A stretch of 64,000 nucleotides of DNA from Perkinsus olseni. Lineage: Eukaryota. The translations under genes and the position numbers were made by a program. The notes under the pieces were generated by a model, which worked only from the letters and a program-made list of their open reading frames with translations, made no database searches and had not been told where the DNA came from. The DNA lies in the NCBI GenBank assembly GCA_013115125.1, contig JABANN010000019.1, forward strand, positions 62,001 to 126,000, in the 5' to 3' direction. Below are positions 1-36,200 of this stretch, piece after piece (the first letter of the stretch is position 1; every line of letters begins with the position of its first letter).

Positions 1-1547
1 AAGAGCTTACCTGGTCCTTTTCAAGATTACGTGATACCGGGCTTGGCGTTAAACGGACTACGATGTTTTCGAGTGTCCAATTTTGTGAAATTCATCTAAT
101 CTGCGCTTGGCTCGAAATGACTCTTTTCATCTTTGCTGGTAGGGGAACTCCTCCGCACACATCTTGGAAAAACAGGAATCTCATCGTTCCTAGTTGTCTG
201 GCGGGCCCTTACCTCGTTCGCGGTCAACTTTTCCTGCATATAAGTCAGAGGATTGACTCAGCATTGCCTTCGTTACCGGCACATGGATATACACAAGCTT
301 CCTTGAGATCCTTCGTTGAGAAGTCGCGGAAAACGTATCGCAGAAGACTGCAGGGGCGATTTTCTCACACGGCGTTGACGAGCCATTGGGTCGGTTCTCA
401 GGTGGTCTTTGATTCAGGTACGTAGCGAGCTCTGCAATCATTTGCTACATCTTCAGAATTTGGCACAGCACTTGGGAACGCAGCAAGGACACGTGCAATT
501 TGATCGTTATAATCTCTCTGGTGGGCAGCTCGAGTTTATTACGTACCGCTTGACAGCGCACGTTTTCATTTAGTGCGCAATTCTAGCTCTCCTCACCACG
601 AAGAGCTTCACGGTGCTTGAGATTCTCTGGACATTCTCACAGCTGCTTGAAGGATTCGCTATGGTAACTGGAAGGTTGGGAAATGGTTTTTGTGCTCTTT
701 CGCTGTGTACGAAGTTGGCTCTCGGTACCTTTTTAAGTGGCTGCTATCTCCAACGACTCTTGCGTCGTTACAGGTCGCTGTCGCAGGTTCCTCAATATGT
801 CTTCTCCTACAGGGACAAGGGAAATAACGACCGCGGTGTCAGTAAGTACGGCGTAGTGTACAGTCCCACTGTCGCTATTGTCAACTTCGCCAAGGACTTA
901 GAGGATAATCTTAGAGTCTTCTGCTACTGACCTCGCGCGGCATCTGTAGCTCTCATCCTGGATGTGCTTCTACGCTACCATTGAACGGTGTTCTCCGCTC
1001 CAGCTGGCCGTGTCACGCCCAGCACGGCAACAGCGTCAGTTCAACTGACTCAGTTGATGCCCTCAGGTACTTTCATTCTCTGTGTTGGTGGATACAGAGT
1101 GTTTTACGCGTTCAATTGGATGTACAAAAAGATTAATCTGGGACGGCACTATTCAGATCTCAACTCGTGGCTGGGTGGACTCATTGAGATCATGTTTTTC
1201 CTCGACTATATCACGTAGGTGTCAGAGCTCCAGGAAACACCTTTTCCGGGTTCTTTGTTGCTCTAGGTGACGTGGGATGTCCCGCTGATCAGATATCGCT
1301 TCAAGGGCGTCTCTTGCCTCCGTACGATGGTTCTGGCTGTAGACCAGAAAATCAACGATATATCGGAGAAAGTGGAGATGAAAGTCATGGGAAGCAGCTC
1401 CAGCTATGGTAAGTCTCAGCGGCGTTTCGATCCCTTGTCAATATCATACCACTGTCAGACGGGCTGTCTACAACTGACGGTACGGTGAGGCGAAGGAAGG
1501 GCGGCGCAGCAGCAGAGGCTGACGAGCAGGCCATGCTTGAGGTCTGA
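1..1547 (+). CDS. ERD2: ER lumen protein-retaining (KDEL/HDEL) receptor family protein; multi-exon, 5' end probably upstream of the window
   Basis: Exons encode WHSTWERSKDT, LEILWTFSQLLEGFAM|VPQY and FILCVGGYRVFYAFNWMYK, matching ERD2 motifs (EILWxFSxxLExxAxxPQ; LGxYRxxYxxNWxYR). The last exon ends ...EQAMLEV-TGA at 1547. Confidence 0.85.
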
Positions 1548-2388
1548 GTTCACGAACCGTGGATTATGAGAGTTAAGGTGTCGAAGCACGATTGAGACAC
1601 TCAGTGAACACGGATCCTTGTTCTTGAGTTCTGGGAGTTATAGACATAAGGCCTTACTTCTGCTACTTAGAGACATCATGATGCTGCTAAATATGTCGAA
1701 TACCCCCCGAAGCTCGCGACCTTCAGCACTATTAGAGCTGAAACCGCGACGCAGTTGTCGCTTGTCCCGTTTTGCGTTCCACCGAAAACTCATTGAATTC
1801 GTCGTCACTGGTGAACTCGTCAAGTAGCATCGTCGAGCGAGTCGCTCGGAGCGACTTTGTCTCACAGAGATAAATCTCAATCATTCATCTCCGAAACAGC
1901 TCTAACCCCGGCGAAGTGAAGTTCAGATGGCGACTGTCGTAGAGGCTCGGGAGGCGACTCGTCTCCACTGTGGATCTCCTGCCAATGCTACAACTCGTTT
2001 GTACACGCTAGCGTAGCACGACGCTGCTCACGAGTCCCGTCACAACATTTCAACGGCTCCGATGCGCGGAACGTGACACCATCTTGCTCACTTGAGCCGT
2101 CTTGCATTTTCATCGTTGCTTAGGGAGTGCGCACATTTCGTGACAAGATTCTCGTTGACGAAGCCATCTTATTGCCTCTGTTCCTGGGAAAAATCCTCGA
2201 GATTAACTGATGCCGAGGCGCTTTCTCTTCGACACTCGTGAGTTCTCCGTGTTCACTTTCTTCATTCGTTAAGGCAGTGCAGGCCTCCCCTGCTGCTTCT
2301 GCTCCAAGTTCTTTCAACTTCCGCTGATTGGTGACCGATTGGTTGTTAGCTTTGACCAGGCGTTTGTTGTTACGACCAGTGGAACTCG

Positions 2389-3210
2389 ATGGCTCTTCGC
2401 CGTTCGTCTGCTCGTCTGAAGCACTTCTTCACGGACGGAGCCAATGACTACGTCACTGGTTGGGAGAACACACCGCCGCTCAAATTCCCTGCCAGCGTCA
2501 TGAAGCCGTGTGACTACTCCAAGACTAAACCCATTCCTAAGCATTGGGTAAGATGCCCCCGCCTGATTGAAATTCTCGGTGCTATGTCATTCGTCGATGT
2601 TTTCTTTTGTCTCAGAAACTCCGTGGGTCGGGAATACATGGTCCTGAGAACACGGACTTGATGAAGCTCGTCTTGTGGAACCGTCTGAAGCAGAAGAGAC
2701 CACAGCGCGAGGTGGGTCTATCTTCAATGGTCTAAACCTCCGCCCGGCAGCCTGCGTAACACCTTTGTTGTGGAGAACAAAGTGTCATGCACACAGGTGC
2801 CGAACATCAACTACTTGAAGGATTCCATTCGATTGGAGCTGTCTGTTAACTGGTGGCTGATGAGTAAGTTGCGACCTTCGCTGTTCCCTCCGTTTTTGCA
2901 AGGTGGAATTGCAGCGCTTGCATACCATTCGTGCGAGTCTTCACGAGTTGAATGTTCCGGATATTCGTGCTCCTCTGCAGGTTGCATCTTCTTGTGGGGA
3001 CCTTGGCTGCACTGGGGTCAGGAGTACCAGAAGGTTCATGAGCAACCTCCATGGGCTATGAAGCGTATAGGTGAGTAACTGCTGGTACCGCCCCCTCTGC
3101 TGTGAATTTTCTTGCACCTCGGGGAAGGCTGCCAACATATTGTCTCAACTCGCGTTTTCGCTTTAGATGGTCTGCGTGGTGAGGGCTACTTCACTTGGTT
3201 CCTGGAGTAG
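2389..3210 (+). CDS. Small (~150 aa) putative mitochondrial single-pass membrane protein, 5 exons
   Basis: Starts MALRRSSARLKHFF (Arg/Ser-rich, presequence-like). Exons join at GT-AG sites through LSVNWWLM|SCIFLWGPWLHWG (hydrophobic/aromatic segment) to DGLRGEGYFTWFLE-TAG at 3210. Confidence 0.6.
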
Positions 3211-3534
3211 TCGTTGGCGCATTATGTGGTATCAGAAGGAGAAGCTTTTATGTCTGCGTCTTGTGGACGAGAAGAGAAAGTACATGATGTCGTGGACTCA
3301 CACGTCATCTCGTGGTCAATTTTTGCTATATTGATACAAGATCAGGTTAGTATAAGCGTAATTTATATCGAGTTGAGTTCAGTCGATGGGCATCGCAACT
3401 GTATACACGTTGCGATACACATGGTGAGGGCTGGAACACATTGCGCAGAAGAGATATACTTTCGTCAAACTGTTTCGACGCTATACTTGCGCTTAACTCG
3501 TCATAAGTGCTTTCCTCGAGTTACTTTTTTCCGT

Positions 3535-5396
3535 ATGCCTCAGCCGCCGCTGCCCCGGGGCAAGAAGGGGGGAGACGGCGATTTTTGGACAAAGCTCAAC
3601 AGACGGCGTCAGTTCACGGATGAAAGTGCTGAAGTCTGGGAGGTGATATTTCGGCATCAACTTTCCTTTGCTGAGCCGCGTATGGGAATGAACTGCTGGC
3701 GTTACAAGCCCCCTTTACCGCGTGATATTCATTCACAAGTGATACGAAACTCGGTCTCAGTCCGAAATTGCCGGAATGCGGGAATTGCATGCTTCTTTTT
3801 GACTGTGAACGTGTTTGTGCTCAGACTCGAGGCACTTCAAGTCATGCAGATGCGGTGTATGAATCAGGGGATGGTTTAGCACTGCAGACACCAACGAAGG
3901 TTGTAGACAGAATCGCCAGGTTCTCCTCGGTAATGCGCGGATGGGGGACACTGGTGTCCGTCTCGTTGCCTCCTTTGATAGTCGACAGCCACCGGCTTGC
4001 CGCTGTAGCGCTTCGATACGATGAACTTGCTTTGCTAGGTTTCCCGCGATGGCAAATCAGAGGTCATCCTTTCCTCTTCTCGGACCAGTCGGTTGACGGT
4101 GGCCGTGTCCGCGCGTGTGTCCCCGACTGCGTTGGCAGAGCTCCACGAAAGCGGCTCTACTGAAGGTAGCATCGTATTTCCTGAGAGTTTGTATTCAACT
4201 AGTCACCGTCATGATTCTCAGGCAAACAACTGAATATACGGAGGAGCATAACTTTCCCTCACGGCCACCAAACTCACATCGAAGGCTGCTCTACTACCGC
4301 ATCAACATCCAGCAGCCCTAGTGCTCACACGAGTAGGATTCGTCATTTATATAACTCTAACGGTAAGTTGCTGCCGAGGTCGCAATGTTCAAGTTTCTGA
4401 ATCGGTATCTCTGCAGACGTCGAAATGTGTATCGAGCAGCTGGCTCCAAGTGCCACTTCCGCTATGTCGGAGGTTGTGCACGATGCCGATCCTGTTTCGA
4501 CGAGCACACCCTCTATTACGCCTGTTACACCAGACCAGCCAGGTACGATGATTGTAGCTCTTAGGGGTTGTTTCTCATGAGGGAAGTGAAAAGTTCGCGA
4601 TTCGGATCGTGAGTCACGATTCGTGACGGTGTTTTTCTGCGTAGGTGAAATTCGACTTTCTCCTCTCCAAGCTTCCTTATCGTTGCCGCTGGGCCTTCCC
4701 GCAGCCACCGCAGTTTCGGAATGTAATTCTTCTTGCTCAACCCGACAGTCCTTCTATAGTACATGTCGCTTGCCTCTGCATCGCAGTTTGTCTGTAGCAC
4801 CGAGTGTAGCGCCCAGCGTTACGCGCTTCCGTATGAGCTCAAGTATCTCCGTAGCAAGCGACGAGAGTTGTGATCTGTCGCTGCCGGTTCCTCATAAGGT
4901 GAGTATGATCCGACGGCGGATTGCCTACTAGCAAATGGCCAGCTTTTAGTACTGCTGTATCTCCGTTCAGGCTCGACTGCCGTCGCCCACATGCAATCAG
5001 ACAACTCCATCTTCGAGCTCAAAAGACGCGAAAGAGCCCACTGGTGAAGACAACGAGGCTCTCCAAGGTGAAATACAGCGCCTCCGATTGGAGTTGGAGC
5101 AAAGCAGGCAGAGGGTCAGAGACTTGGAAGACAGTCACAAGAGTTTTTGGGAGGAAGATGTTTTTGATATTATAAACAAGGTATCCATCCAGCGAGTTGA
5201 TACAACCAAGGATGGAGACTCTAATCTGCATAGCGTGTCTATAAAATCACTGCTTCCCACTGATTGTGAATCCTCAGTTCGAAATGCTCGACGAGGGACT
5301 AGTGTGAGCTCCTGCTCGAGTACATGTTCGTTCCACACTGCAATATCGAGTTTTCATTGGAGCGATGATGAGTGTGATTCTCCTACAGTTTTGTGA
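3535..5396 (+). CDS. Hypothetical Ser-rich/coiled-coil protein, multi-exon; internal structure uncertain
   Basis: ATG at 3535 (MPQPPLPRGKKGG...) after a pyrimidine tract. Several GT/AG-bounded open segments follow. The last exon ELEQSRQRVRDLEDSHK...SPTVL ends at TGA 5396. No family motif recognised. Confidence 0.35.
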
Positions 5397-5507
5397 GTAT
5401 CTTCTTAACGCAAAAAGAAACGTCTCCAAGTTCTGCAGTTCATGTTAAGTTCTATCATAACAACATTTACTGCAACGGTAAGTGACAACGTCGCTTTTCT
5501 ACCGGTA

Positions 5508-7330
5508 CTACTGCCAAGTTAGCTCACGCACGGTCCCGCGGGAGGGGGTTGGAATGATTCTCATTCGGGAAACTTCGGCTCGTTGCGGTGTGATAGATGT
5601 CAACGAAGACGGACGGGTACACCGCAGCAAATTGCTGATCGGCGACAAGAAGTTCAAGTCCGCTGTTGACGAGCAACTATGTCCTTCGAGGTGAGATGAT
5701 TATGACCACCTTTAGCTACTAAATGAAGGTTGGTCGGATGTGATTAATATCGAAACTCGACATAGTGTAATGTCATTGATACGGCAACATACTTCCGCAT
5801 TCCATGTACTCACGAGCTGTTCCACAAATGACGTGGGTCACTTGAACATATCTAGTTCTGTTCCAAAGGGTGGGGAACTCCTCGATGACGGGTATACTCG
5901 CCGTCTGCCGCCGCTGAACACTTCGGCTGGATCAGGATGTTCTCCCGAATGTTCAACGGAGTACCGCAGGATATCAGAGCTCCTATCAAGAGGAAAACTG
6001 GGTAGCACCAACCGAGACCGCCACCGTGCGGGCCCGACGATGACCCATGATTTGACGAACGAACGGTAGCTCGGCGCCAGCGTCCGAGACCCTTCCCTTC
6101 CGGTGACGGGACTTACGTTGGGAGTGTTTTGATGCTCTTCCTCCCGCCGACAGGGAAGGTTTTGGCGTGTGTGCTTGCGGGATCCTCCGTTAAGGAGGGT
6201 TTCCACGATAGGATGTCTCCGGAACTGAGGTACGGAATGTCACCACATGGTAGATTGCTAGGCGCAGAGAACGCTCGGAAGACGAAGCTTGATTTCTGAT
6301 GGGTGGATTATCCCTGAGATCTACTTCTTATAGTTTCCACGCCTCTTGGGGTTCAGTCGTCTCGTGAACTCTCCCCCTTTGTCACCAAGATTCGCAATGA
6401 TTTCCTTAGGATACTCTTGCTGCCGCTGGATCCGCCTGATATGGAAAAAAAACGAATCAACGTTACTACGAAAGAATCCTTCACTGTGCATTCCACCCTT
6501 GACTTACGTGGACGGATCAGGCTCAGTATCCAGGGCGTACGGAACTTCAATCTTGCGCTTGGGCTCCACTCCACGTCCGATGGAGGCATCCCTCTTCTCC
6601 AAGACAGCCGACACAAACTCGTCCAGCTTGGCATGAGACGGGTCTTCTTCATGTCGAAGAATCAACATTTCGATATCCTCATCGACTTCGATACCACATT
6701 TCGCCAAGCGCGTGACGAACTGATGCGTCGAAATGCGCCCACTCATAAGGCTTGCTACTGCCAGCCGGATATCGTCGTCTGTAATGGCACCGGCAACTTC
6801 GGACTCCCAACTAACGGGGTCGCGATGTGGAGGAAGAGCCGGTTGCGGGCGCACCTGAGCAAAGTCCATATCAACCCTGGTTTTTGTACGCTCGGTCTCG
6901 TCCCACTTCCTCAAGCTTGTAAGTTGCTTGGTGCGTTCGCCCTGCATCAGGGTTGCAACTCTCGAGTGCTCGGATTAAGGACGCATACGTCATCGTACCA
7001 GCTTGGCCCTCCGTTTCGATCAGCCTTTCCAGCGCGGGCGTCACGGGAACCTGAGAGGAGCCGCTGGCTGCGGATACCGCTTCGATCTGAAGCTCTCCAT
7101 AAGCGAGTCTTAGTGCACATCAGAGCGGTAAGAGCCTGAAATCATATTCGACGAGTTTACTATTCTCCCTAGCTCTGTTCGGAACTCCGCGACGCTCATC
7201 CTGCCGCTCCTGTCGAACTCCTGAAATAGCCTCAGAAGTCGGGATTGCCCTGCTCCCGTTGTATCCCCATTGGCCGATCCCAAGCACTCTGAAAACTTCC
7301 CGGAGAAGTCCGCGCACACAGTCGGCATGA
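5508..7330 (-). CDS. Hypothetical protein with EF-hand-like helical segments; boundaries approximate
   Basis: Minus-strand exons include RLFQEFDRSGRMSVAEFRTEL (EF-hand-like) and LMSGRISTHQFVTRLAKCGIEVDEDIEMLI. Confidence 0.4.
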
Positions 7331-8104
7331 GGCGACCAAAATCCAGAACAGAGTGCTGCAACCAGATTTGAGGAGGCCTACTGATGCGTAACGTGAACAA
7401 TCAGAGCTCAACCTTCGTCAACTAAACGCTCAGAGGGGAGCTGAGACGAGAATGTGGGACATCTTGCCTCAGCAAACCAGCAGTCGTTCAAAATAAGAAA
7501 GGCTGCCAAGTGAACAAGCCAAGGAAGTGCAAGACTCTCGGAGTAGCCCATTGATAACTCTTTCTCACTCTGGGTGACCGGCCTTATATGAACTGCTTCG
7601 ACCGGACCTACTTCGGCGGGCGAAGATGGCCGCTACAGACGCTGACTGTTGTTCTAACGCGAGCAATTCGAGGGGATGAGATGATAGCTTAATGCATCGA
7701 TCTCTATCAATGATCATCTGGGACCAGATTGACTGTACTTAACACCAGACTGAGTTGATGCATGTCACACTACGTCAGAGCAAGCTACGTCGTTCTCAGC
7801 ACCACGAGGCGCAAACAGCTAGAGTATCCATACAACAGTCACGCAGTAGATAAAAAATCTCGACCCTCACATCGGGCGTCTGCTCAGAACCAATATGCGC
7901 CCGAATATGATGTCGCTTATAGTGGAGTGCAGGGGGCCGAGGCGGGCAACCAGGAAGCAGCACAGAGCCACTTCGCTGGTTGAATACAAAAAATGAAGGT
8001 CCGAGCTCTCATCAGACAACAAAGAAGATTATCGCGCAAAAAAATATCGCCATTCCGGTGATTAACGCCAATTAATGTAGTGTACTCTTGCCATAGCGGA
8101 GAAG

Positions 8105-9600
8105 TCAGCTGCCAAGATCGAGCGTCGCATCGCTGCTGCTACTCTCGCTCCTTCGGTTCTCTTCGCCTGTGGCTGATCGTTCCATAATACTCGGTCTAGG
8201 ACCAGGACCAGCGGGCGTGGCCCAGTCCCGCAAATACACGACTGTTACACAAATATTATCCGCGGCGTGGCGGGCTATGGCTCGGTCTATAAGATATCGA
8301 GCCGCAGTAGCAGGAGTAGCTTGCTGTCCAAGCATGTGGCGGCGAACCTGAAGAAGTCGCAAAAATTGAAACGCTTCGTGGTAGTTAAGAAGATGGGAAA
8401 GAGGGCGGCCCTCACCGTCTCCACTGCTGTCTTCGAGCTCACAACGTCGAAAAGGCCGTCAGTAGCCAATATGATGAACTCATCGTCCTTTTCGAGTGGC
8501 ATGCTAGTGATCTCTGGCTCGGCGATTTGCCCCGCGTTCTTGCTTCCTGAGGAAGCCCGTAGATCGCCCAGTGAGCGGGTAACCTGAGAAAGGCATACCA
8601 ATGAGTTGAAGAGACGGCGATGACAGTGAGGAGAAACTGCATGGGCGAAGGTGCTTACCGCGAGCCCTCCAAGATACTCGCTCGAAGCACTCTGCAAATA
8701 GGGTGCTACGCGGCGTCTCTCGTCCTCTGTGCAGGACTTGAGGTTATGGTCACGAGTCAAATCAATAGCCTGCGAAGGGAGAAAGGCGAGCTGCTAGCAT
8801 GTTGGATGCTTCCGCTCGAAGGCTCACCTCGCCACGGCGGCAGAGCACAGCCCTGCAGTCCCCAGCATTGGCGACCGCCAAGGAGCCCGGGGACGTTGAT
8901 TCGTCGACCAAGCAGACACATGCCGTGCTGCCAGATGTCATCAGAGGATATTCATCATCCTGGCAAAAACAAGAATACCAGTAGACACCAATCGAGTCTG
9001 AAACTGAACAATATGGTACTCACGTCCTCAAAGTCGTCATCGAAATAAGCGCGGAGTTTAGGCATTTCCGTTTCACACAGGAACGACTCCAATGCCTCCT
9101 CAGTGAGGGAATAGCTGAGAATGAGAAGACATCAGAGACGCCACGTCGACAGCAGCAGGGCACCTTCTAGAGAGGGTATCTTCCTTGTCTCTTGAGGAAT
9201 CGAGGGACCTCAAAATCACATTCCTCATGTAGTCTTTAATGAATTCGGCCGCACCCGCGCCACCGTGGCCGTCAAAAACGCCGAACGCGCCTGATGAGAT
9301 AACCTTGAGCACATACAAACAGATCCACCAATGTTCTCACCTCCGCCGCTGAAGGGCACGCACATGGACGTGTCTTCCATGCGCGACTTGTGTCCGATGT
9401 CAGCCGCGTTACCGTAGCGGTCCATGATTGGTGGAATTTGCAGGGTGCTCTTGTCCGTACCCTCACACGGTGCGGTACTGGTGTCCGAAAGTGGGGTATG
9501 CATAGGGGTGTACAAATCGGGGATATTAAACTGCGACGAGACCGGGCTAAACGGTAGTAAGTCCGAGCGAAGAGTCACAGATCGGCGAGCGGAGGGCAAC
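8105..9600 (-). CDS. Protein phosphatase 2C (PPM family); 5' end uncertain
   Basis: Motifs RMED, FGVFDGHGG, VANAGDCRAVL, VTRSLGD, FIILATDGLFDV and AADNICVTVV occur in order across GT-AG exons. Stop at 8105. Confidence 0.95.
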
Positions 9601-10130
9601 TTCTACCTCCCCGGACCCTGACAAGGGAAGCGTTGAGTTATTCAACCGCAGCTCGTGCTGGAGACGGCAATAGTAGCACAGTCACAGGGCACACCAACGG
9701 CGAGTCTCGAAATAACGAGTCGAAGACGGACCCTGGAAGCCCACCCTGCGCAAGAAAATGCTGCACGCCATCAAGACACCCGCCAAAGTGCTAGCGACGT
9801 AGTTCGAAGCACGTAGAGAGTTGTATTGACCACACAATGTCCGCTCTAGGGAAGAGAAAAGGAGCCCTGCCGACGCGAGTAGATTTGGCCCTCGACGAAA
9901 CTGCCCCACTCGTCTGTGTGAGAGCCGGGAACAATTTTGAATGAGACACACCATACCAGGATATTCAGCGAGAATAGTACGTAAAGGCGCACGCCAACTG
10001 AGTAATTACAGAGACAGAGTCTCTTTTAACGCTGGAAATGCCCTGCCGATCGCAAAATGCGCCTGGCGATTTTAGGGCGCGCGAAGTTTTCATGAAATAA
10101 TCGTCCGCCAAGGGCATATGCTTCAGCTCG

Positions 10131-10214
10131 TCAACATTTTTCTCTCCCTTGTCAACTTTTTCCTCCTCTCCCTCAAAATTTTTCTCTCCCTTGTCAAGAT
10201 TCGTTTTCTGCCCC
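10131..10214. repeat. Four degenerate 21-nt tandem repeats in a pyrimidine-rich tract
   Basis: TCAACATTTTTCTCTCCCTTG / TCAACTTTTTCCTCCTCTCCC / TCAAAATTTTTCTCTCCCTTG / TCAAGATTCGTTTTCTGCCCC read directly. Confidence 0.75.
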
Positions 10215-10314
10215 CTTTCTCCCTTTCCCGCTTTTCTCTTTCTCGGGCGCCCGGCCAAACCCATTTTTCAGGCCACTAGTTTCCATCGTAGAGAAATGCG
10301 GAACGATTTCTTGT

Positions 10315-10699
10315 GGGGGAAACCTCTAGCTGTGGTTCGAAGTGATTAGGATCACCCTTGTGTGTGCGGCCCGGGCGAGCGCGAAAGTTTGTGCGGGCTG
10401 TGGCACCCGGTGACTGGCTAGCGAGCTAGTCGTGGAGTAATATATGGAGGTGTTGGTGGATGTGCAACGAAGTGTTTTAGCTCTGTCCCATCCCTCCCAT
10501 TCCCTTGACGTTGGTGGACCCGGAGTGGCTCGGGTTTTGGAGTTTGATGGTCTTGACGTAATCTCCTTACCCTAGCTACTCCCGGGTCTGCATTCGCGAA
10601 TCCGGTCTCGAGGAGGTGTCGGACACCTGGTGTCCCCTCTCGCGGGTTCTGGCTTCGCGTATGCCTCTCCCAACCTCAGCGTCTATGGGTTTCCCTTTT
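10315..10699 (+). ncRNA. Unidentified highly structured non-coding RNA candidate, possibly a Pol III transcript
   Basis: The 5' GGGGGAAACCUCUAG pairs with the 3' CUAUGGGUUUCCCUU, and the segment ends in TTTT. At least four internal hairpins (10362-10406, 10412-10431, 10517-10588, 10590-10664) carry G-U wobbles favouring the + strand. It is intergenic between FAM135 and PP2C. Confidence 0.6.
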
Positions 10700-10888
10700 C
10701 TGGCCAATTCCTCCAGAATAAGTGCCGAGCGCTATCTCTGCATCCCATTCGCGCTACACCCTACAGTGGAAGCTTCCGCCTGCTCTGGGACGTCCGGGGT
10801 GTGTCGGGGGTCTGCCTGTCCCAGGCCCCTGTCTCCGCCAAGCCGGAGCCGTCTGAGTAACACCACACGGAGAAGTAACCGAGGACGG

Positions 10889-13800
10889 TCATTGGAAGAG
10901 AAAACAGTAATTATGAATAATCATCTTCATCAATGGTTGATTCTCAATGAACTGTATATGAGCCGCTCGGCCTATGAGTGAATCCAGACTTCGTTCTGGT
11001 AGGTAAAAATTAACATCCAAGCGAATTAGTTTCTCGGGCGCTATCCCGGATACAAGGGACCGAGCCATTTCTGTGTACCTAGGGAACGACGATAACGGGG
11101 CTATTACCAAGCACTGAACTGGCATGGGTGGTATCGGTCTGCTCTGAGAGTTCATGAGAAAATGTTCGTGAATTATATTTTAACACTAACACGCGCAATC
11201 ACTCCTCACTCACACCGAACCCATCGTTGGCTCCTGTCGCGCCTTGTCCGACACTTCTATGCGTGCAGAATCAAAACCGGCGTATTGATCTTGGCATGAG
11301 GACGCCAGTACCACATGCTGGAACCTGAACCATATACACTGCCAGCAGAAGCAGTTCCAGGGACTACTGGAGCACTCACCGAGGGAGAATTTGCCCCGAC
11401 TCTTTGGCTAGCCGATAGAGGTAGCACTCCTCGGGTATGTCCGAGTCCGCCATGGTCAGCTGGTGCAAACACTCGGACTTCCGCCAACGTTTGAGAACTG
11501 ATCAGTCGAAAGAGAGCCCTATAAAAGCGGCAATCCCCGACGAGGTTAGAATCATTTCCAAAGTCATCACCGAAGCACGCCCCCGAGGTTGCCCTGCGCG
11601 TTTCGACGAGTTGACGATCAACACGCTGAGTCACAAGCACTTACCCCAAAGACCACCTTCAATCAGTTTGTTGCTGTTGTACATATACCCAAGGTGTGGA
11701 GCAGACAGACTCAAGAAGGTGAACCTGGAACAACTTTTCAAAAGCCCATACTCTTCGAAAATTATCACTCCATTTTAATGACGTAGCGCCTACCAGAGCA
11801 AAATTTCAACAGGAATCAGCGGTACCTCACGTGAATCAGAGTGAGCAGTAGATGGCAGTCGTAGCATGTATGAACGGCTGCACTAAAATCCGTACTACAA
11901 CTTCTCTGATATCCCCGGCTGATCCGTGAGCGCTGGCAGTGCTGCCCGTACAATGAGGCCGCCAAGAGAGTGTGAAATGAATGAGAGGCGGGTCTGAAGA
12001 AAGGCAGGTGTAGACGGGAGCCATCATAGATGGGCACTCTCATCTTCCAACCTAACGCTGGGGACGCTTATCACGCACAAACTACTCCCCCGAGAGATCA
12101 CCGACTAGAGGCTTACTAGTGCCGATCCTGGACACCAGTCCGCGATGTAACACGCCACTTCGTCTGCAAGGCGTTGGCCTGTAAACGTCCAGTACGGGAC
12201 CGAAACAGAAGGGAGTGCCTACCCATCTCCGCGATGTTTCCCTCGGTATCCTCTTCATTGCATGAGCTACACAAAAACAACGAATCAGGGAAAACGCAGG
12301 CTAGGTTGTCTTTGAAGAGCCTCATGTCATAGGAACTGCCTTGAAAGCCATGCACCTGAGCGCGGAAACGTGAGTAGTAGTCAAACCGACAACAGAACCC
12401 GACGGTACCAAAACGATGAGATGCGACCCTCTGTATGGTTTCGGATCCGTTGCCATCGGTTTCCGTTGCTCGGTGGGTTCTTCAGAGACATCACCGCTTC
12501 TCGGAGACGACGCGCCGTTTGACTAAAAGGCCACTAGACTTCTCTGGAGAAAGCGGTAGCGCTATGGGGCCCACATATTTTTGCTCAAATATAATTGGCA
12601 TTGCCGACATTCCTGTATAGTGATGACCAGGAGCAGGAGGCTCCCCCTCTTTCACAGGGATCGCTAACTGTGTTGTGTCCTCGATCAGACACAGCGGCTC
12701 CGGTGGGTTGAAGAAAAACGTCCTGAAAGTGACTGAACGGTGAAGACGAATTCACGTGATAGGCTCTGACATTACTCTCTCACACGGTCGGCTGCAGCTT
12801 TATGAGCCTCCCAGATGTCATCCTCCAGAGGAAACGCCAGGTCCCGGCTGGAGTCAACCGTCTGCGTAACGCACGAGTTGCAATGACTGAATCTGCCAGA
12901 GAGAACGCTGCACTTCGCAGGAGGCGGAAGATCTTTCTCCTACTTCTCGATGGTCTTTCTCTCCCATACTCTCCGTAGTCGCTCGCAAACCTCTCGGCAA
13001 CACAGTGGCAGTACATCGAGCAATCTGAAGAGTGAATGCACAAACGGCGGAACGAACACACGCGCCACTCCTCACCCACGGAGACCATCGTCGAGATTTC
13101 GAGAGGATACTACGAAATTTACCTGTGCCAAAGCTCGAATGAGCTCACTGCTAGCACGTTCATCGTTGCCATGATCTCGATAACATTCTTCGGTCCGGCT
13201 CCTTCAGGCTACAGGAAACACACCATGCGGAGCACTCGTCAATTCATAACCACCAGGGAGAATCGAGCATTGCTCTTGAGTGCTCACCGGCTTATGAGGG
13301 ATACTCAACTTCTCCGCTAACGACTTCTCGTAGCGACCATCCAGGCACCGCTTCGTGACCTCACAGAAAAACTGAGGAGACCAGCAAGTACAGCTGGCGG
13401 CGACGGAAAGCTTCGGTAACATACCGATTCGAGATGGCTGTATGCCCCTTCCATGGCATCCATATACGCAGTCGACCCAGCACAAGTCTTTGGTGAAGGA
13501 ACAGATGATTCCTCAGGGTTTGTATCAGTCGTCATCTGAGGAGCAGAGGAGAGATGCCAACGGGGCGCCAGAAGCGTATCGAAAAGCATTCTCCCGCGGA
13601 ACGAAGCTACCAAAGGAAGTGAGTCTTCGTGGTCTTTGCCCACGGAAGCATTCTCCCCCGGAATGTCTTGAAACCGAAGCCAGCCACTTACACCGTTCGC
13701 TACTTTGAGCTTCAAGAACTCCTCTAGAGTTTTGGGCTCGGCGAGAGGAGCGCAAGGAGGGACTGACGCTGTTTCGACGTTACGACTCCGTTCCTCACCA

Positions 13801-29452: not shown

Positions 29453-29672
29453 GACGGTGGACGAGTGCAAGAGCCCGATCATCGTCACATCGTAGTGGTA
29501 GTACTATAGTTGACATGTGTATGGTAGTGATTGTCTATGAGTTGCTCGAGCCTTGAGTTATCGTCCCTTATCCCGCTGCTCTCTTCCGTTGTGATGGGCT
29601 CTCTATCACATGCGACCGACTGCGACGGTCCGAGCGACTGCTCCCAATAGTATTTCATTCGCTCCGTTGATA

Positions 29673-31150
29673 ATGTCTAACCCTCCCACATCCTGTATAG
29701 CCGACAAGCAGTTGGGGGCTGACATGGACGAGTACAAGCTTGTTGTCATAAAGGTCGGTACCTCCACTCTAATGAAGCCCTGCCAGACCGTGGACATGGC
29801 CAATATGGGCGGCCTCGTAGACCTGGTTGCGAGTATACAAAACATCCCTCATCATAATCACAGAGTCATTATCGTAACATCTGCAGCCGTAGGCTTCGGA
29901 TGCCTCAAGCTTGATCTCCCGGCTCGTCCTGATGCTGACGATTTGTCGCTCAAACAAGCCGCAGCGGCGGTTGGGCAATCGTATCTTATAAGACTCTATG
30001 AGGACTTCTTCAGCGTCCATAATCTTCGCTGTGCGCAAATGCTGCTTTCAAGGCCCGACTTCGCGGCCAAGGACCGATATCGGAATTTCCGAAACGCGAT
30101 TTTCCGCCTACTCGATCTCGGAGTAGTACCCATCATCAACGAGAACGATTGTATCTGCGTGGACGAACTTCGCTTTGGGGAGAATGACACTCTATCGGCA
30201 CTGGTCGCCGTTAGCTGCAATGCGGATAAGCTCTTCCTGTTGACCGATGTGGACTGCCTGTTTGATAAGAACCCTCATGAGTTCTCCGACGCCAAACCGA
30301 TTAGGGAGCTCAGTAGTATTGAGCTGGCTAAGCTGGATGTGGATGTTGCTGGGGATAGCCAATGGGGTAATAAGTCTGAGCGCCCTGTTTCCGAACCAAG
30401 AACGCCTCGGACCTGAGGATGCTCCCTGACAGTTCGCATCCCAATGTCAGGATCGGGAGGAATGGAGACGAAATTGATGGCAGCACGTACTGCGGTATCC
30501 GCGGGTATCGAATGCATTTTGACTCACGGGGCCAAACCTGAAAAGGTAGTCGAAGCGGAGTTACTGATGGTTAGCCTCTCCTTAGGTTCTCGAGTATCTG
30601 ACCGACTCTGCGTCGGACTCGCTGATGACTATATTTAGAGTGTCCCCTGACAGCATGAGATTTGGAGTGTCGGAGATGACTTGGCGGCGAAGGTGGATTT
30701 TGGCCCTCCCGCTCAAGGGCACAGTGACGCTCACCGCAGTGGGTGCTAATTCGATAAGAAATAAACGCCCCCTGCTGGCGACTGGTAGTCACGCGGGCGG
30801 CTCATACGGAACTATTTGACCGATCCGTCGGGCATAGGTATTTGTGCCGTGTCGGGCGTGTTCCACCGTGACGAGGGAGTGTCCCTCCTTGATGAGGAAA
30901 CTGGCGAGGAAATAGCGCGCGCCCTGATGAATATGAAGAGTGTCGAGATTGAGAAGGTGAAGGGGTATTCAGCGAACAAGTAGGGCATTTGGGGCGTGAA
31001 ATCCTGAGACGGTTGTCCGCTAGGTTCCAGAAAATACTAGGTTATCCTGTCACTTCCGAAGTGGCCTTCCGAGAGAATATCATATTAACGACCGGGGCCC
31101 TAGCAGCGCTGGACAGTGATCAGGATGAGGACGAAGATGACGATGATTGA
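29673..31150 (+). CDS. proB: Glutamate 5-kinase with PUA domain, copy 1
   Basis: VIKVGTSTL, IIVTSAAVGFG, KQAAAAVGQ, PIINEND, LFLLTDVD, GSGGMETKL, and PUA-like exons. Ends in an acidic tail and TGA 31150. Confidence 0.95.
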
Positions 31151-31443
31151 CCACACGTTGGGAAGTCAAGATTGTTCAATATCGAAATTAGGAGTCGTAC
31201 GGTTCTCTTTTTGGTCAGACCTCAGTAGGTTACTGGGAGGCCGTGACCAACATTATTTGTTACGTAGTGATAGCGTTCGTGATTACCCGTACATGGAACC
31301 CCGTTTCCAAGCCCGTGCTCCTTGCGTTGCGACAGTGGTTGCTCTCTGGCTGATCGGGCATGCGCCAGTCACTACGGATAGCTAGTACGTCCCTTCTCTG
31401 TAGGAATTATTAGGGGGTGAAGCCCAGTTTACCTCGGTGAGCC

Positions 31444-32939
31444 ATGTCCGGAACTGGTCATGAACACGGGGCACATCATAACCATCATGGTGAGGAAGAA
31501 GAGAAGAGACACTTGATCGTGCTGAAAGTCGGCACTTCGACTCTGATGAAGCCCTGCCACACGGTTAATATGGCCAATATGGGCGGCCTAGTAGATCTAG
31601 TAGCCAGCATCAGGAGACTGCCTGGTTATCAAGTCATCATAGTCACGTCCGCTGCAGTCGGGTTTGGTTGTCTGAAGTTGAACTTGGAGAACCGTCCCAC
31701 ATCTGATCAGCTCTCGTTGAAGCAGGCCGTGGCAGCTGCTGGTCAGTCTCATCTGATACGACTCTACGAGGATCTCTTCAATGCCTACAATCTAAAGGTC
31801 GCGCAAATCTTGCTGTCGAGGTCCGACTTTTCCGCGAAAGACCGCTTCAGAAACTTCCGAAACGCAACCAACGAGCTCCTTAAGATGGCAGTCATTCCGA
31901 TAATAAACGAGAACGATTGCATATGCGTGGATGAGCTTCGATTCGGCGACAACGACACTCTATCGGCGCTAGTGGCCGTCAGCTGTAATGCGGATAAGCT
32001 CTTCCTATTGACCGATGTGGACTGCCTGTTTGATAAGAATCCTCATGAATTCCCCGACGCCAAACCGATAAGGGAGCTCAGTAGTATTGAACTGGCTAAG
32101 CTGGATGTGGATGTTGCTGGAGATAGCGAATGGGGTAATGGGGAGGGGCATCCTAGAGAACCGCTCTTATCTTGTCATCCATGCGTGCTCCTTCTCAGGG
32201 ACTGGCGGTATGGCCACCAAACTAGTAGCAGCTAGGACAGCAGTCGCTGCTGGAATAGAGTGTATCCTCACGCATGGCGCGAAGCCCGATAAGGTAGTAT
32301 GCCGCTTATCCCCGTAGTGCGGCGGCTATGAGTGACTATCCTCAGGTATTGAGATATCTGCGAGACGGATCAGAGAATGAGCTGATGACGGTCTTCAGAG
32401 TGGCCCCAGATGATATGCAGTTTGCGGTATCCAAGATGACGTGGAGGCGACGCTGGATGCTGGCCCTACAGACTAGGGGGACTATCAAACTCGACTCGGG
32501 GGCTGCTGATGCGATAAGGAAGAAGAAGAGCCTCTTCGCGGCCGGTAGAGACGTAGTGGCAGGGCGGTTCCCGGCTAATTGTGTTTTTTCAGGCATCACG
32601 GAGGTTACGGGAAGCTTTCACCGAGATGACTGTGTATCCCTGGTAGACGCCGAGACTGGCGAGGAAATAGCGCGCGCTCTCGTCAATCTTCGAGATTTCG
32701 AAGTCAAGAAAATCATGGGCCATCGATCTTCCGAGTGAGAACGTTAGCAGTCTTCTCGCCAACTGTCAGCTTTGTGATAACGCAGGTACAGAGAAGTCTT
32801 AGGCTGCGTTGTTGCTCCAGAAGTTGCGTATCGCGAAAATATTATTCTCACCACGGGAGCTCTCGCAGTTCTTGACAGCGAGCCGGAAGATTCCGACCAA
32901 CCGTCCACTCCGGAAGAATCTTCCCCGAAACAGCGCTGA
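31444..32939 (+). CDS. proB: Glutamate 5-kinase with PUA domain, copy 2 (His-rich N-terminus)
   Basis: VLKVGTSTL, PIINEND, FGDNDTLSALVA, GTGGMATKL, and PUA KKSLFAAGITEVTGSFHRDDCV. Same intron positions as copy 1. TGA 32939. Confidence 0.95.
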
Positions 32940-33295: not shown

Positions 33296-36200
33296 ATGTC
33301 TAGCGCGTCTCCGGGAAAGCAGGAGGGCGAGATCGCAGCTCTAACTCGGGATGTCGTGGACAGCATTTGCGCAGCTCAAGTCGTGACGAGCCTGAGCCAA
33401 TGCGTCAAGGAGCTGCTGGAGAATTCGTTAGACGCTGTATGTAATACGGGTGGCTCACAGGCCAGACGGTCACCTGCCGTGCCTGCCTTCACTGTGAAGT
33501 ATAAAGTCTGCCGTCCAGTTGTCGCGAAAAAAAACTGTATAAGAGTCCGCGTGTGGACCAATAGCTCAATAGCTGGTACAAAGTGTTACGCAATTGACAT
33601 TTCTCAAACACTCTTCTACGCCGGTATTTCCATGATTTACTTTCGTTTCGCAGGGTGCCAGCAGCATTACTATAACCCTCGTTAACAACGGAATTGATAT
33701 GATATCAGTATCGGATGATGGATGCGGGGTATCTGAGGAGAATTGGTCTACCCTGTGCCGATGGCATGCGACCAGCAAGGTCGATACTCTCGATGGCCGG
33801 ACAGATGATCTCCGGTTGGGCTACAGTGACTTTGGCTTCCGAGGAGAGGCGTTGGCGGCGATGTGCGGCCTTAGCAATGGGGGAGTCATCGTTCTCACTC
33901 GGACAGGGGACTCGCAACTCGGACTTGGAAGGGTGCTGGTGTATGACAAAACAGGTCGCCTTGCCAGTAGTGACGGTGAAGCTGCGCGGGGAGTTGGTAC
34001 CACTGTCACTGTACGGGGACTGTTCAAAGGCCTTCCGGTGAGACTCAGGGAGTTCGAGAGGAGTGCTAAGAAGCAAGTCACGGCAACCGTAGAGCTCATA
34101 CAGGCTTACGCTGTTATACGGCATGATGTCGCTTTCCGTCTGTCATGCGACGGCCGTTCTTTACTCGCTACGAATGCCGAGAGCGATATGGACACAGCGA
34201 TACGGAAAGTGTGCTGTCTATCCCCGGCGGAGCTCCTAGGCATGACCCGCATCGAGTTGAATGGGGAGGATAGTAGGTGGACTCTGAAGGCCTGGCTCTC
34301 CCCTCCGACTAGCGTCGTTCGCCCTGGTGTGGTACATGCCCAGTGGCTCTATGTAGGAGGGCGTCCGGTGGACATGCCAGTGAGAGTGAGTAGGACCATC
34401 AACCAACTGTACAAGAGGTTCCAGACGACCCTGGCGTTAGAGAGAAAGAGCGGCCGTACTTGGATAGCTGTATTATCGGTTGAGCTCGGAGATGATGTGG
34501 ACGCGGCTGATGTGAACTCGTCGAAGGATAAGAGAGCAGTCATACTGGATTTCGAGGCCGAGCTGTGTGATAAGATCACCGAGAGGGTCGAGGAAGACTG
34601 GTCCAGTGCTTCCAGCCAAACCGCTGTTCAAGTGGGAAGCAGCTGTAAACAGCAGAGGAGGCTAGACGATTGGCTGAGGAAAGACGATAGTATCATGGTC
34701 AAGGCACCAACTAAGAAAGAGGAACAGTGTGCTCGAACGCAGCGACAGGAACAATGGACTCCGCGAAGTGCAGGGCGACCCGAGGTGCCCGCTCCGAGAA
34801 AAAGCATCATCACCCCGCCAGCTAGGCACTCTGATTGCCCTCCAGTGGGGGATTTGATCCGGGTCAGTGTGCCTCCAAGCACTCAGCTTCGGAAACGCCG
34901 GGACAGTCTGGATACACCACGGAAGGAGCCTCGACATGAGACCGACTCGCCGGCCTCGGCGTTGCTGGTACGGACTGTACAGGACGTGCTGGCTGAGAGC
35001 GCAAGGAAGTCTCGAAATTCAGAGATAAGGGACACCACTCAGTCCGAGATCGCCAGTGAGCCGTGCGAAGAAGAGGAGAGCCCTGTGGAGGTACCAGCCT
35101 CGATAGCGGACGACTCTCATCGAGAAACAGTTGGCAGCGGAGATTCGCGAACGATATCGTCTTCATTGAGCGATGATAGATTAACAGCGGATATTACTAC
35201 GCAGCTTCGATCTCGAGCGGGTGATTCATTCGCTCCTTCGGAGAGCTCTGGTGTCACCGAGTCTTCTGCAGCGGAAATTCAGGAGCAAATGGAGGACGCA
35301 GCTTCCGATGTTGGTGATTTCAAAGTTGGGGACGGCGCTGGGGAACTGATCAGCGCGTCGCGGAAGCGGCAGAGAGAAGAGAGCCCTGAGAGCATTGGAC
35401 GGAAATTGATGAAAGTTTCGACCCCACCGGACGACCAAGCCGGGGATGAATTTGACCAGGGCTTCAATGCCACATTCCACGTGAAGCTAGGGAAGAAGCA
35501 CTTTGAGGCTATGCGGGTGATTGGGCAGTTCAACAAAGGGTTTATCATAACAGTTCTCGAGGGTCGATGGCTATTCATATTGGATCAGCATGCCTGTGAC
35601 GAGAAGACCATATTCGAGACCCTCAACAGAACGTCAGAACTGAAGTCTCAGCCTATGGTTGTTCCGGTGAGGCTCAGCCTGCCGCCCCCTATTGAGTCGT
35701 GTATCAGGAGCTCACGGAAAGAGATAGAAGTGAGTGGGAGCCGACAGTCGTGCTCGGTCATGGCGCTTTTCTATTGCGCTTCTGATACGCCTTCCCGGCG
35801 ATCCCTGAGTAAAGTGAACCCGTTGGCAGCTCCACTTTTCCAGGCGTGTGGGTTCCGTTTCAACTTCGACGATGAAGCCCCTATCGGCTCCCGGGTTCAG
35901 CTGACGTCCCTTGGCGTAGCCTCCGGCTTGGGATTCGAGAGGAGTCGGCCTCTCACCAAAGAGGACTTCGTCGACCTAGCGAGCCTTTTACTCGATCGAG
36001 GAGCGACAGGTCGGCCCGACGACGAAGGTGGGGACCGAACGCAGTCGGTCGTCATTTCGTCACTCACGCCATTCTACTGCCAGCCCCATCAGCCTCGCTG
36101 TTCTGGTCATCATCCCTCGGTCACTGTCTGCGACCTCCTCGCGTATGGTCGATGCTGGCTTCTCGAGCGTGCAGGACAGCCATAATGATAGGGGACTCAC

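Follow-up and report, generated by a model that had tools for sequence, protein, structure and literature searches.

The locus and its copies in public runs

Perkinsus is a parasite of oysters and clams and represents a sister lineage of the dinoflagellates. In the stretch of its DNA analysed here (64 kb, hereafter the window), an intergenic spacer separates two genes that both lie on the minus strand, as the initial annotation had stated: a PP2C phosphatase on the left (Pfam PF00481, E 3e-17, exon 8290–8793) and a FAM135-like gene on the right (weak DUF676 match, E 4.9e-4, exon 12119–12481). Into this spacer, at 10315–10699, the annotation had placed a structured plus-strand RNA with a closing stem and an oligo-T end. 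Farther along the window, a glutamate 5-kinase ORF (29733–30380) has 77–79% identity to two Perkinsus marinus proteins and 94% to another protein, identities that assign the window to the genus Perkinsus but not to P. marinus.

With 10200–10800 as query, 20 public runs were listed as matching, none of them recorded as RNA, and we aligned the contigs of four (X6, X13, X14 and X11) to 9700–11300. Assembled contigs carry no information on strand, ends, RNA level or circularity. Contigs of X6 and X13 join 11076 to 11212, the removal of a GT-AG intron on the minus strand, in the neighbouring gene, and this intron-less joint indicates that both runs hold transcript-derived sequence.

The contigs of the four runs define a unit at 10279–10694, which consists of GTTTCC (10279–10284), a body of 404 nt (10285–10688) and a second, identical GTTTCC (10689–10694); the body with one GTTTCC gives a period of 410 nt. 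These limits come from joints that skip or go back by one period, sharing 5–6 letters at the repeat, and from the end points of copies with foreign flanks. The left repeat is a target-site copy or a crossover site, and the right one doubles as the 3' strand of the closing helix described below. Measured against these boundaries (10279/10285 to 10688/10694), the initial annotation had missed about 30–36 nt on the 5' side, including a small hairpin at 10291–10312, and its T4 end (TTTT, 10696–10699) proved to be flanking DNA: the CTTTT at 10695–10699 lies outside the element, is present in a contig that lacks the element, and is replaced by other letters after two other copies. Since TTTT belongs to the flank, the unit end lacks the oligo-T terminator of a Pol III gene or SINE. 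It reads ...CTATGGGTTTCC and carries neither an A-rich nor a short-repeat tail.

The contig without the element, of 669 nt and from X6, covers 9746–10279 and then 10690–10824; exactly 410 bases are missing, with 5 letters shared at the joint and one GTTTCC remaining at the empty site. Its 6 other differences from the window, all in the flanks, indicate that it derives from a different haplotype or another isolate. A contig of X11 crosses the right boundary of the filled site with 0 differences, so that this site is no assembly artefact. The opposite joint, from 10688 back by 410 to 10279 with 6 shared letters, occurs in both X6 and X13, which stem from independent studies, and in X13 has 126 and 59 letters on its two sides. 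These joints show that the unit also exists head-to-tail, with a single GTTTCC between copies; this form may be circular RNA or tandem DNA, and the contigs fit both alike.

Contigs ending in foreign flanks place such flanks directly before 10279 and 10285 and directly after 10694 and 10695, one of the 3' flanks being found in X14, a run of DNA type that is recorded under another organism's name. GTTTCC is present at two of the three 5' junctions observed, the remaining one having ...GTTT before the body, and at each of the three 3' junctions seen (in the window, X6 and X14). In one copy, foreign sequence extends as far as 10563 and the element begins there, which fits a possible 5' truncation. 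In X6, 46 contigs lie on the stretch, and the spread of their likeness to it (25 at 99% or more, 11 at 95–99%, 9 at 90–95% and 1 below 90%) points to a family of diverged copies. Contig depth in this run was 150–409 on the element vs 16.6 on the flank contig, a poor gauge of copy number or expression. The 64-kb window holds no second copy of the unit, and GTTTCC is not enriched in it (34 sites vs 30.2 expected). Searches with exact words of the unit gave 0 matches in metagenome contigs (a 24-mer and a 22-mer) and 0 in viral contigs (the 24-mer).

Dispersed copies with flanking duplications argue for a mobile repeated element and against a Pol III gene specific to this locus, a conclusion that we regard as very probable. 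A single-copy housekeeping Pol III RNA, with the 7SK-, telomerase- or RNase P/MRP-like identities suggested by the initial annotation, is at odds with the other flanks, the empty site, the direct repeats and the head-to-tail copies. The same annotation had named dispersed copies with target-site duplications beforehand as the mark of a transposon, and it is such copies that the contigs contain. The structured stretch is best explained as a single inserted copy from a family of non-coding mobile elements in a Perkinsus species, which makes it a resident of the spacer and no gene of the locus.

Fold, strand asymmetry and sequence features of the unit

All five structural elements listed in the initial annotation recur in the MFE fold, and the second to fifth have mean pair probabilities of 0.94–1.0 when the unit is folded as a circle. 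These four are a hairpin of 8 + 6 bp with the loop GCGAAA (10366–10401, mean probability 1.0), a hairpin of 8 bp with the loop AGCG (10412–10431, 0.98), a rod of 8 + 7 + 4 + 4 + 3 bp (10516–10589, 0.94) and a rod of 4 + 6 + 4 + 4 + 1 + 4 + 6 bp (10590–10664, 0.97). The small 5' hairpin at 10291–10312 (7 bp, 8-nt loop, pair probabilities 0.94–1.0) adjoins the junction in the head-to-tail form. The remaining element, the closing stem, is formed by the internal GGAAACCU (10318–10325) and the complementary terminal GGGUUUCC (10687–10694). It is predicted with a probability of 0.90–1.0 in the circular fold of the excised unit and of 0 when the copy is folded within its genomic context (10200–10780).

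We folded both strands, a check that the initial annotation had proposed. The plus strand of 10315–10699 reaches an MFE of −172.9 kcal/mol (z −5.30), and 0 of 100 dinucleotide shuffles were as stable; the minus strand reaches −133.4 (z −2.98). The difference persists for the unit folded as a circle (z −4.48 on the plus vs −2.32 on the minus strand). For a genomic background, the rest of the window was cut into non-overlapping tiles of 385 nt and both strands of each were folded (n = 328 tile-strands). None of them (0/328) attained the MFE of the element or its composition-corrected residual (−28.8, 4.6 sd), and the second-best tile is unremarkable (z −2.37).

The plus-strand fold contains 18 G-U pairs and 0 A-C 1x1 mismatches, the minus-strand fold 5 G-U pairs and 2 A-C mismatches. 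As neutrally decaying DNA palindromes should yield G-U and A-C equally, the fold looks selected as plus-strand RNA, and the argument of the initial annotation from its G-U pairs is borne out. Selection acting on the predicted plus-strand RNA fold is thereby supported. Variation between copies was set against the same fold, in which 276 of the 410 nt are paired: five of seven substitutions and the single insertion fall at unpaired positions, a comparison that comprises only 8 differences, one of which (10621) comes from a contig of depth 2.1.

Two of the substitutions concern a B-box-like motif. The GGTTCGAAG that the initial annotation had noted is indeed present at 10334–10342, but two of its nine positions, both unpaired in the fold, are not constant across the copies (10338 C>T, 10341 A>T). 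A putative A-box-like motif lies at 10289–10299, about 45 bp away. The plus strand of the unit has two T4 runs in its interior (10475–10478 and 10535–10538) and none across the head-to-tail junction. Such runs would stop Pol III in many eukaryotes.

The GC content of the unit is 0.563 vs 0.50 in the flanks. Its termini show no significant terminal inverted repeat (5 of 9 positions match, chance 0.15); there is a 13-nt inverted repeat, which corresponds to the closing helix, but its 5' arm (10317–10329) lies 33 nt inside the unit, so that it is not terminal on the 5' side. Coding capacity is absent from the unit, which has only random ORFs of at most 85 aa, and the 85-aa ORF on the minus strand had no match in the protein database. 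An autonomous partner was sought among 26 ORF translations of the window, which yielded no transposon or reverse-transcriptase family.

Candidate identities and modes of movement

Covariance-model searches against Rfam yielded 0 matches at E≤1 over 9000–12000 and 0 at the gathering score over the whole window, and in the linear copy (10270–10710, both strands) none of 4227 families matched even at E≤10. In particular, there was no covariance-model match to RNase P, RNase MRP, 7SK, SRP, snRNAs, U3, telomerase RNA, group I introns or small ribozymes. The absence of a known RNA family, claimed by the initial annotation, is thus upheld, and its Rfam check turned up no family that would remove the novelty. 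ARAGORN detected no tRNA in the window, and no tRNA, 7SL or 5S head was found by ARAGORN (window) or Rfam (10270–10710); a tRNA-like 5' head drawn by hand as a cloverleaf fails as well. An HDV-like fold threaded by hand from G10279 gave joining regions that were too long.

Several kinds of intervening or inserted DNA were likewise rejected. A spliceosomal intron is incompatible with the 410-nt skip, no register of which gives GT-AG, GC-AG or AT-AC on either strand, and for a group I intron there is no register within the 6 shared letters that has U before the 5' splice site and a last G on either strand, nor a match to Intron_gpI. A solo LTR is contradicted by the lack of TG...CA ends and of flanks resembling a primer-binding site or purine tract at the contig ends, and a Helitron by the lack of a register with an A|T insertion site and TC...CTRR ends. 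The unmatched termini exclude a MITE with terminal inverted repeats. Finally, a nuclear copy of mitochondrial DNA would not have a GC content of 56%, as Perkinsus mtDNA is 82–86% AT (PMC9550989).

Of the identities suggested by the initial annotation, only a SINE-type element comes near the data, though the unit has no known SINE head or tail. A classical SINE is further disfavoured by the constant 6-nt repeat and the internal T4 runs.

For the mobile element we tentatively favour, at slightly less than an even chance, a non-autonomous element with GTTTCC as its insertion site and a folded plus-strand RNA as its means of movement. This RNA would arise by read-through transcription or from a promoter inside the unit, and would adopt a compact fold of several hairpins that GGAAACCU and GGGUUUCC close by pairing. 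The enzyme of an autonomous element might then be borrowed to copy it into GTTTCC sites, and the 3'-terminal GUUUCC of the RNA could pair with the nicked target during reverse transcription, a pairing that would account for the constancy of the repeat in the flanks. As for the head-to-tail form, it could represent a monomer that has been circularised, as in retrozymes, or result when further copies insert into the GTTTCC at the edge of an earlier one. An RNA intermediate is favoured by the strand-specific fold, the 18-to-0 ratio of G-U pairs to A-C mismatches, the variants that avoid paired positions and the copy starting at 10563. Against RNA-mediated movement stand the missing head and tail, the internal T4 runs, the constant 6-nt repeat and the tandem units sharing one repeat, both of which are Dada-like, the 5' junction with ...GTTT and the lack of an autonomous partner in the window.

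A more specific version, which we consider rather unlikely, takes the unit of 410 nt for a small circular RNA that is encoded in the genome, has no known self-cleaving ribozyme and spreads by reverse transcription into GTTTCC sites. Cleavage at GUUUCC and ligation would be the work of host enzymes or of a hitherto undescribed ribozyme spanning the junction. The hammerhead core motif, CUGANGA, is absent from both strands of the head-to-tail form, and the sole site with one mismatch lacks the essential last A.

The strongest rival derives the unit, as a non-autonomous form, from a DNA transposon with a specific target, such as Dada or a similar type; the transposase would insert it into GTTTCC and duplicate those letters, and the RNA would be mere read-through. 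Head-to-tail arrays would grow whenever an insertion hits the GTTTCC next to a copy already present. At the level of DNA this explanation does well. GTTTCC stands at both ends of the unit, once at the empty site and once in the head-to-tail joint, there is no significant terminal inverted repeat, and the duplications of P. marinus Dada elements are fixed sequences of 6–7 bp (PMC3706591), one of which is shared by tandem copies, a pattern that GTTTCC matches. The elements described there, however, are 4.7–11 kb long, encode a transposase and reside in small RNA genes, whereas the site studied here has no detectable RNA gene around it (0 Rfam matches over 9000–12000) and no transposase was found among the 26 ORF translations of the window. 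Moreover, neither the strand-asymmetric fold nor the location of variants at unpaired positions would be expected of movement as DNA. A Dada-type origin accounts for the facts at the DNA level but not for the asymmetry at the RNA level, and we judge it doubtful.

A still less probable explanation is an introner-like element that is cut precisely from transcripts at its direct repeats, so that the mRNA keeps one repeat and the whole unit comes free as a circle. It draws on the joints of X6, a run with spliced transcripts, in which skipping 410 and going back 410 are exact reciprocal products with 5–6 shared letters, on ends that suit neither a GT-AG nor an AT-AC intron in either orientation, and on the introners of the related parasite Amoebophrya, which have boundary repeats of 3–5 nt and folding inverted repeats (PMC7789003). 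Against it, the element lies between genes, and the fold under selection belongs to the plus strand while both neighbours are on the minus strand. For the skip, the 6 flank differences of the contig without the element make a different allele the simpler source, and tandem DNA could equally give the head-to-tail joint. Contigs with foreign flanks are present in X6 too, and the strong inverted repeat is not 5'-terminal, with the termini themselves unmatched.

About as improbable is a multi-copy gene for a functional non-coding RNA with tandem and dispersed copies, of which the copy in the window would be a gene or a retro-pseudogene. The exceptional strand-specific fold, the variants that avoid paired positions and the putative A- and B-box-like motifs near the 5' end, about 45 bp apart, would suit such a gene. 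Yet none of the 4227 Rfam families matches, there is no terminator at the unit end or in the head-to-tail form, the B-box-like motif varies between copies, and tandem units leave no spacer for a promoter or terminator; presence and absence at the site together with a constant flanking repeat indicate an insertion and no conserved gene locus.

An endogenised viroid-like circular RNA replicon of Perkinsus, whose genomic copies would be occasional reverse-transcribed integrations, is highly improbable: although 410 nt, a compact branched fold, a GC content unlike the flanks and a head-to-tail joint in two independent transcript-containing runs would suit it, several genomic copies with common end points and a diverged family point to a genome-resident element, neither strand contains a hammerhead core, junction included, Rfam finds no ribozyme in the linear copy, and the complementary strand is unsupported.

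Significance and comparison with known systems

Our literature searches on Perkinsus returned no description of such an element, while Repbase or supplementary repeat catalogues may already list the family. If our reading is correct, Perkinsus carries an active, insertion-polymorphic non-coding element with a fixed 6-base insertion site, in which the RNA fold and not the DNA is apparently under selection. The family would then give strain markers, and it would be a warning to annotators against calling its copies RNA genes.

Among known elements, SINEs resemble the Perkinsus element in size, in the absence of coding capacity, in dispersed copies with short direct repeats, in a possible 5'-truncated copy and in box-like 5' motifs. 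They differ from it in that the Perkinsus element lacks a detectable tRNA, 7SL or 5S head and an A-rich or simple-repeat tail and has internal T4 runs. In addition, the flanking repeat keeps one sequence among the copies seen here, and head-to-tail units share one repeat. A constant rather than variable flanking repeat is unusual for SINEs.

Viroid-like circular RNAs of the Avsunviroidae type have a comparable length, a branched compact fold and a head-to-tail joint. The Perkinsus element, in contrast, resides at several sites of the nuclear genome and has yielded no ribozyme, and its replication as RNA is only putative.

The introner elements or non-canonical introns of Amoebophrya have direct repeats of 3–5 nt over their boundaries and folding inverted repeats (PMC7789003). 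The two share an alveolate parasite as host, short boundary repeats, a folding internal inverted repeat and one repeat left on removal. Unlike the introners, the Perkinsus element is intergenic and antisense to both neighbours, the inverted repeat is set back by 33 nt on the 5' side, and its removal at the RNA level is only putative. Inverted repeats of 8–20 nt at the two ends, as in Amoebophrya, are not seen in the element, whose termini match at the chance level given above.

Dada elements are represented in Perkinsus marinus by 8 families. Their duplications are of fixed sequence and 6–7 bp long, terminal inverted repeats are absent, and a single duplication stands between tandem insertions; they measure 4.7–11 kb, carry a gene for a DDE transposase and insert into small RNA genes (PMC3706591). 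By this description, they agree with our element in the host genus, the fixed flanking duplication of 6–7 bp, the absence of terminal inverted repeats and the tandem copies sharing one duplication. Our element differs in being 404 bp long and non-coding, in residing in a spacer without a detectable RNA gene and in its strand-specific RNA fold.

The non-LTR retrozymes of animals are short tandem repeats of 150–450 bp with type I hammerheads, which occur as linear and circular RNA (PMC7229834). The Perkinsus element is like them a non-coding unit of a few hundred bases (410 here), found head-to-tail in runs that contain transcripts, compactly folded and non-autonomous. It is unlike them in lacking a hammerhead, in a GC content of 56% vs under 50% in animals, in its protist host, in single dispersed units bounded by a constant 6-nt repeat, and in a circularity that is only putative. 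Should the circular-RNA reading be true, the element would be a counterpart of retrozymes that either has no ribozyme or has a new one, and if the head-to-tail form is circular RNA, a retrozyme-like system would for the first time be known from an organism that is neither plant nor animal, and it would be one in which no ribozyme can be recognised.

A private variant of the element

In the candidate mobile unit (the GTTTCC-bounded element of 410 nt at 10279-10694, folded as + strand RNA), position 10653 is a C in the window copy vs a T in all three of the other sequencing runs that cover it (X6 and X13, which contain transcript-derived sequence, and X14, a DNA-type run). The C is thus a change private to the window copy of the element. 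In the predicted fold, the position is unpaired and lies in the long hairpin at 10590-10664 (rod v).

Breaks and a possible RNA end

One X6 contig stops at position 10330 of the window and is followed directly by Illumina adapter; many short inserts therefore end at this position, which may represent a discrete RNA fragment end within the 5' region of the element. Further contigs from X6 leave the element after 10431 or enter it at 10563, with 172 and 255 nt of adjoining foreign sequence. Contigs with these breaks would represent copies at other sites, either truncated or rearranged.

Surrounding repeat and genes

About 80 nt upstream of the element insertion, a CT-rich motif of 21 nt (TCAA..TTTTTCTCTCCCTTGTCAA) occurs in three tandem copies (10131-10197). 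The repeat lies in the spacer that precedes the PP2C gene, the left neighbour on the - strand, and is possibly a CT-rich promoter or trans-splicing signal.

A long single exon of 849 aa at 33636-36185 encodes a mismatch-repair protein of the MutL/PMS1 type that carries the DNA_mis_repair and MutL_C domains of Pfam. Two glutamate 5-kinase genes form a tandem pair (29595-30416 and 31441-32235, ~1.77 kb apart), whose repeated blocks are 75-81% identical at the nucleotide level. Besides those from Perkinsus, many of the named protein matches to glutamate 5-kinase are cyanobacterial, at ~45-50% identity, and judging from these matches the gene may be plastid-derived or transferred.
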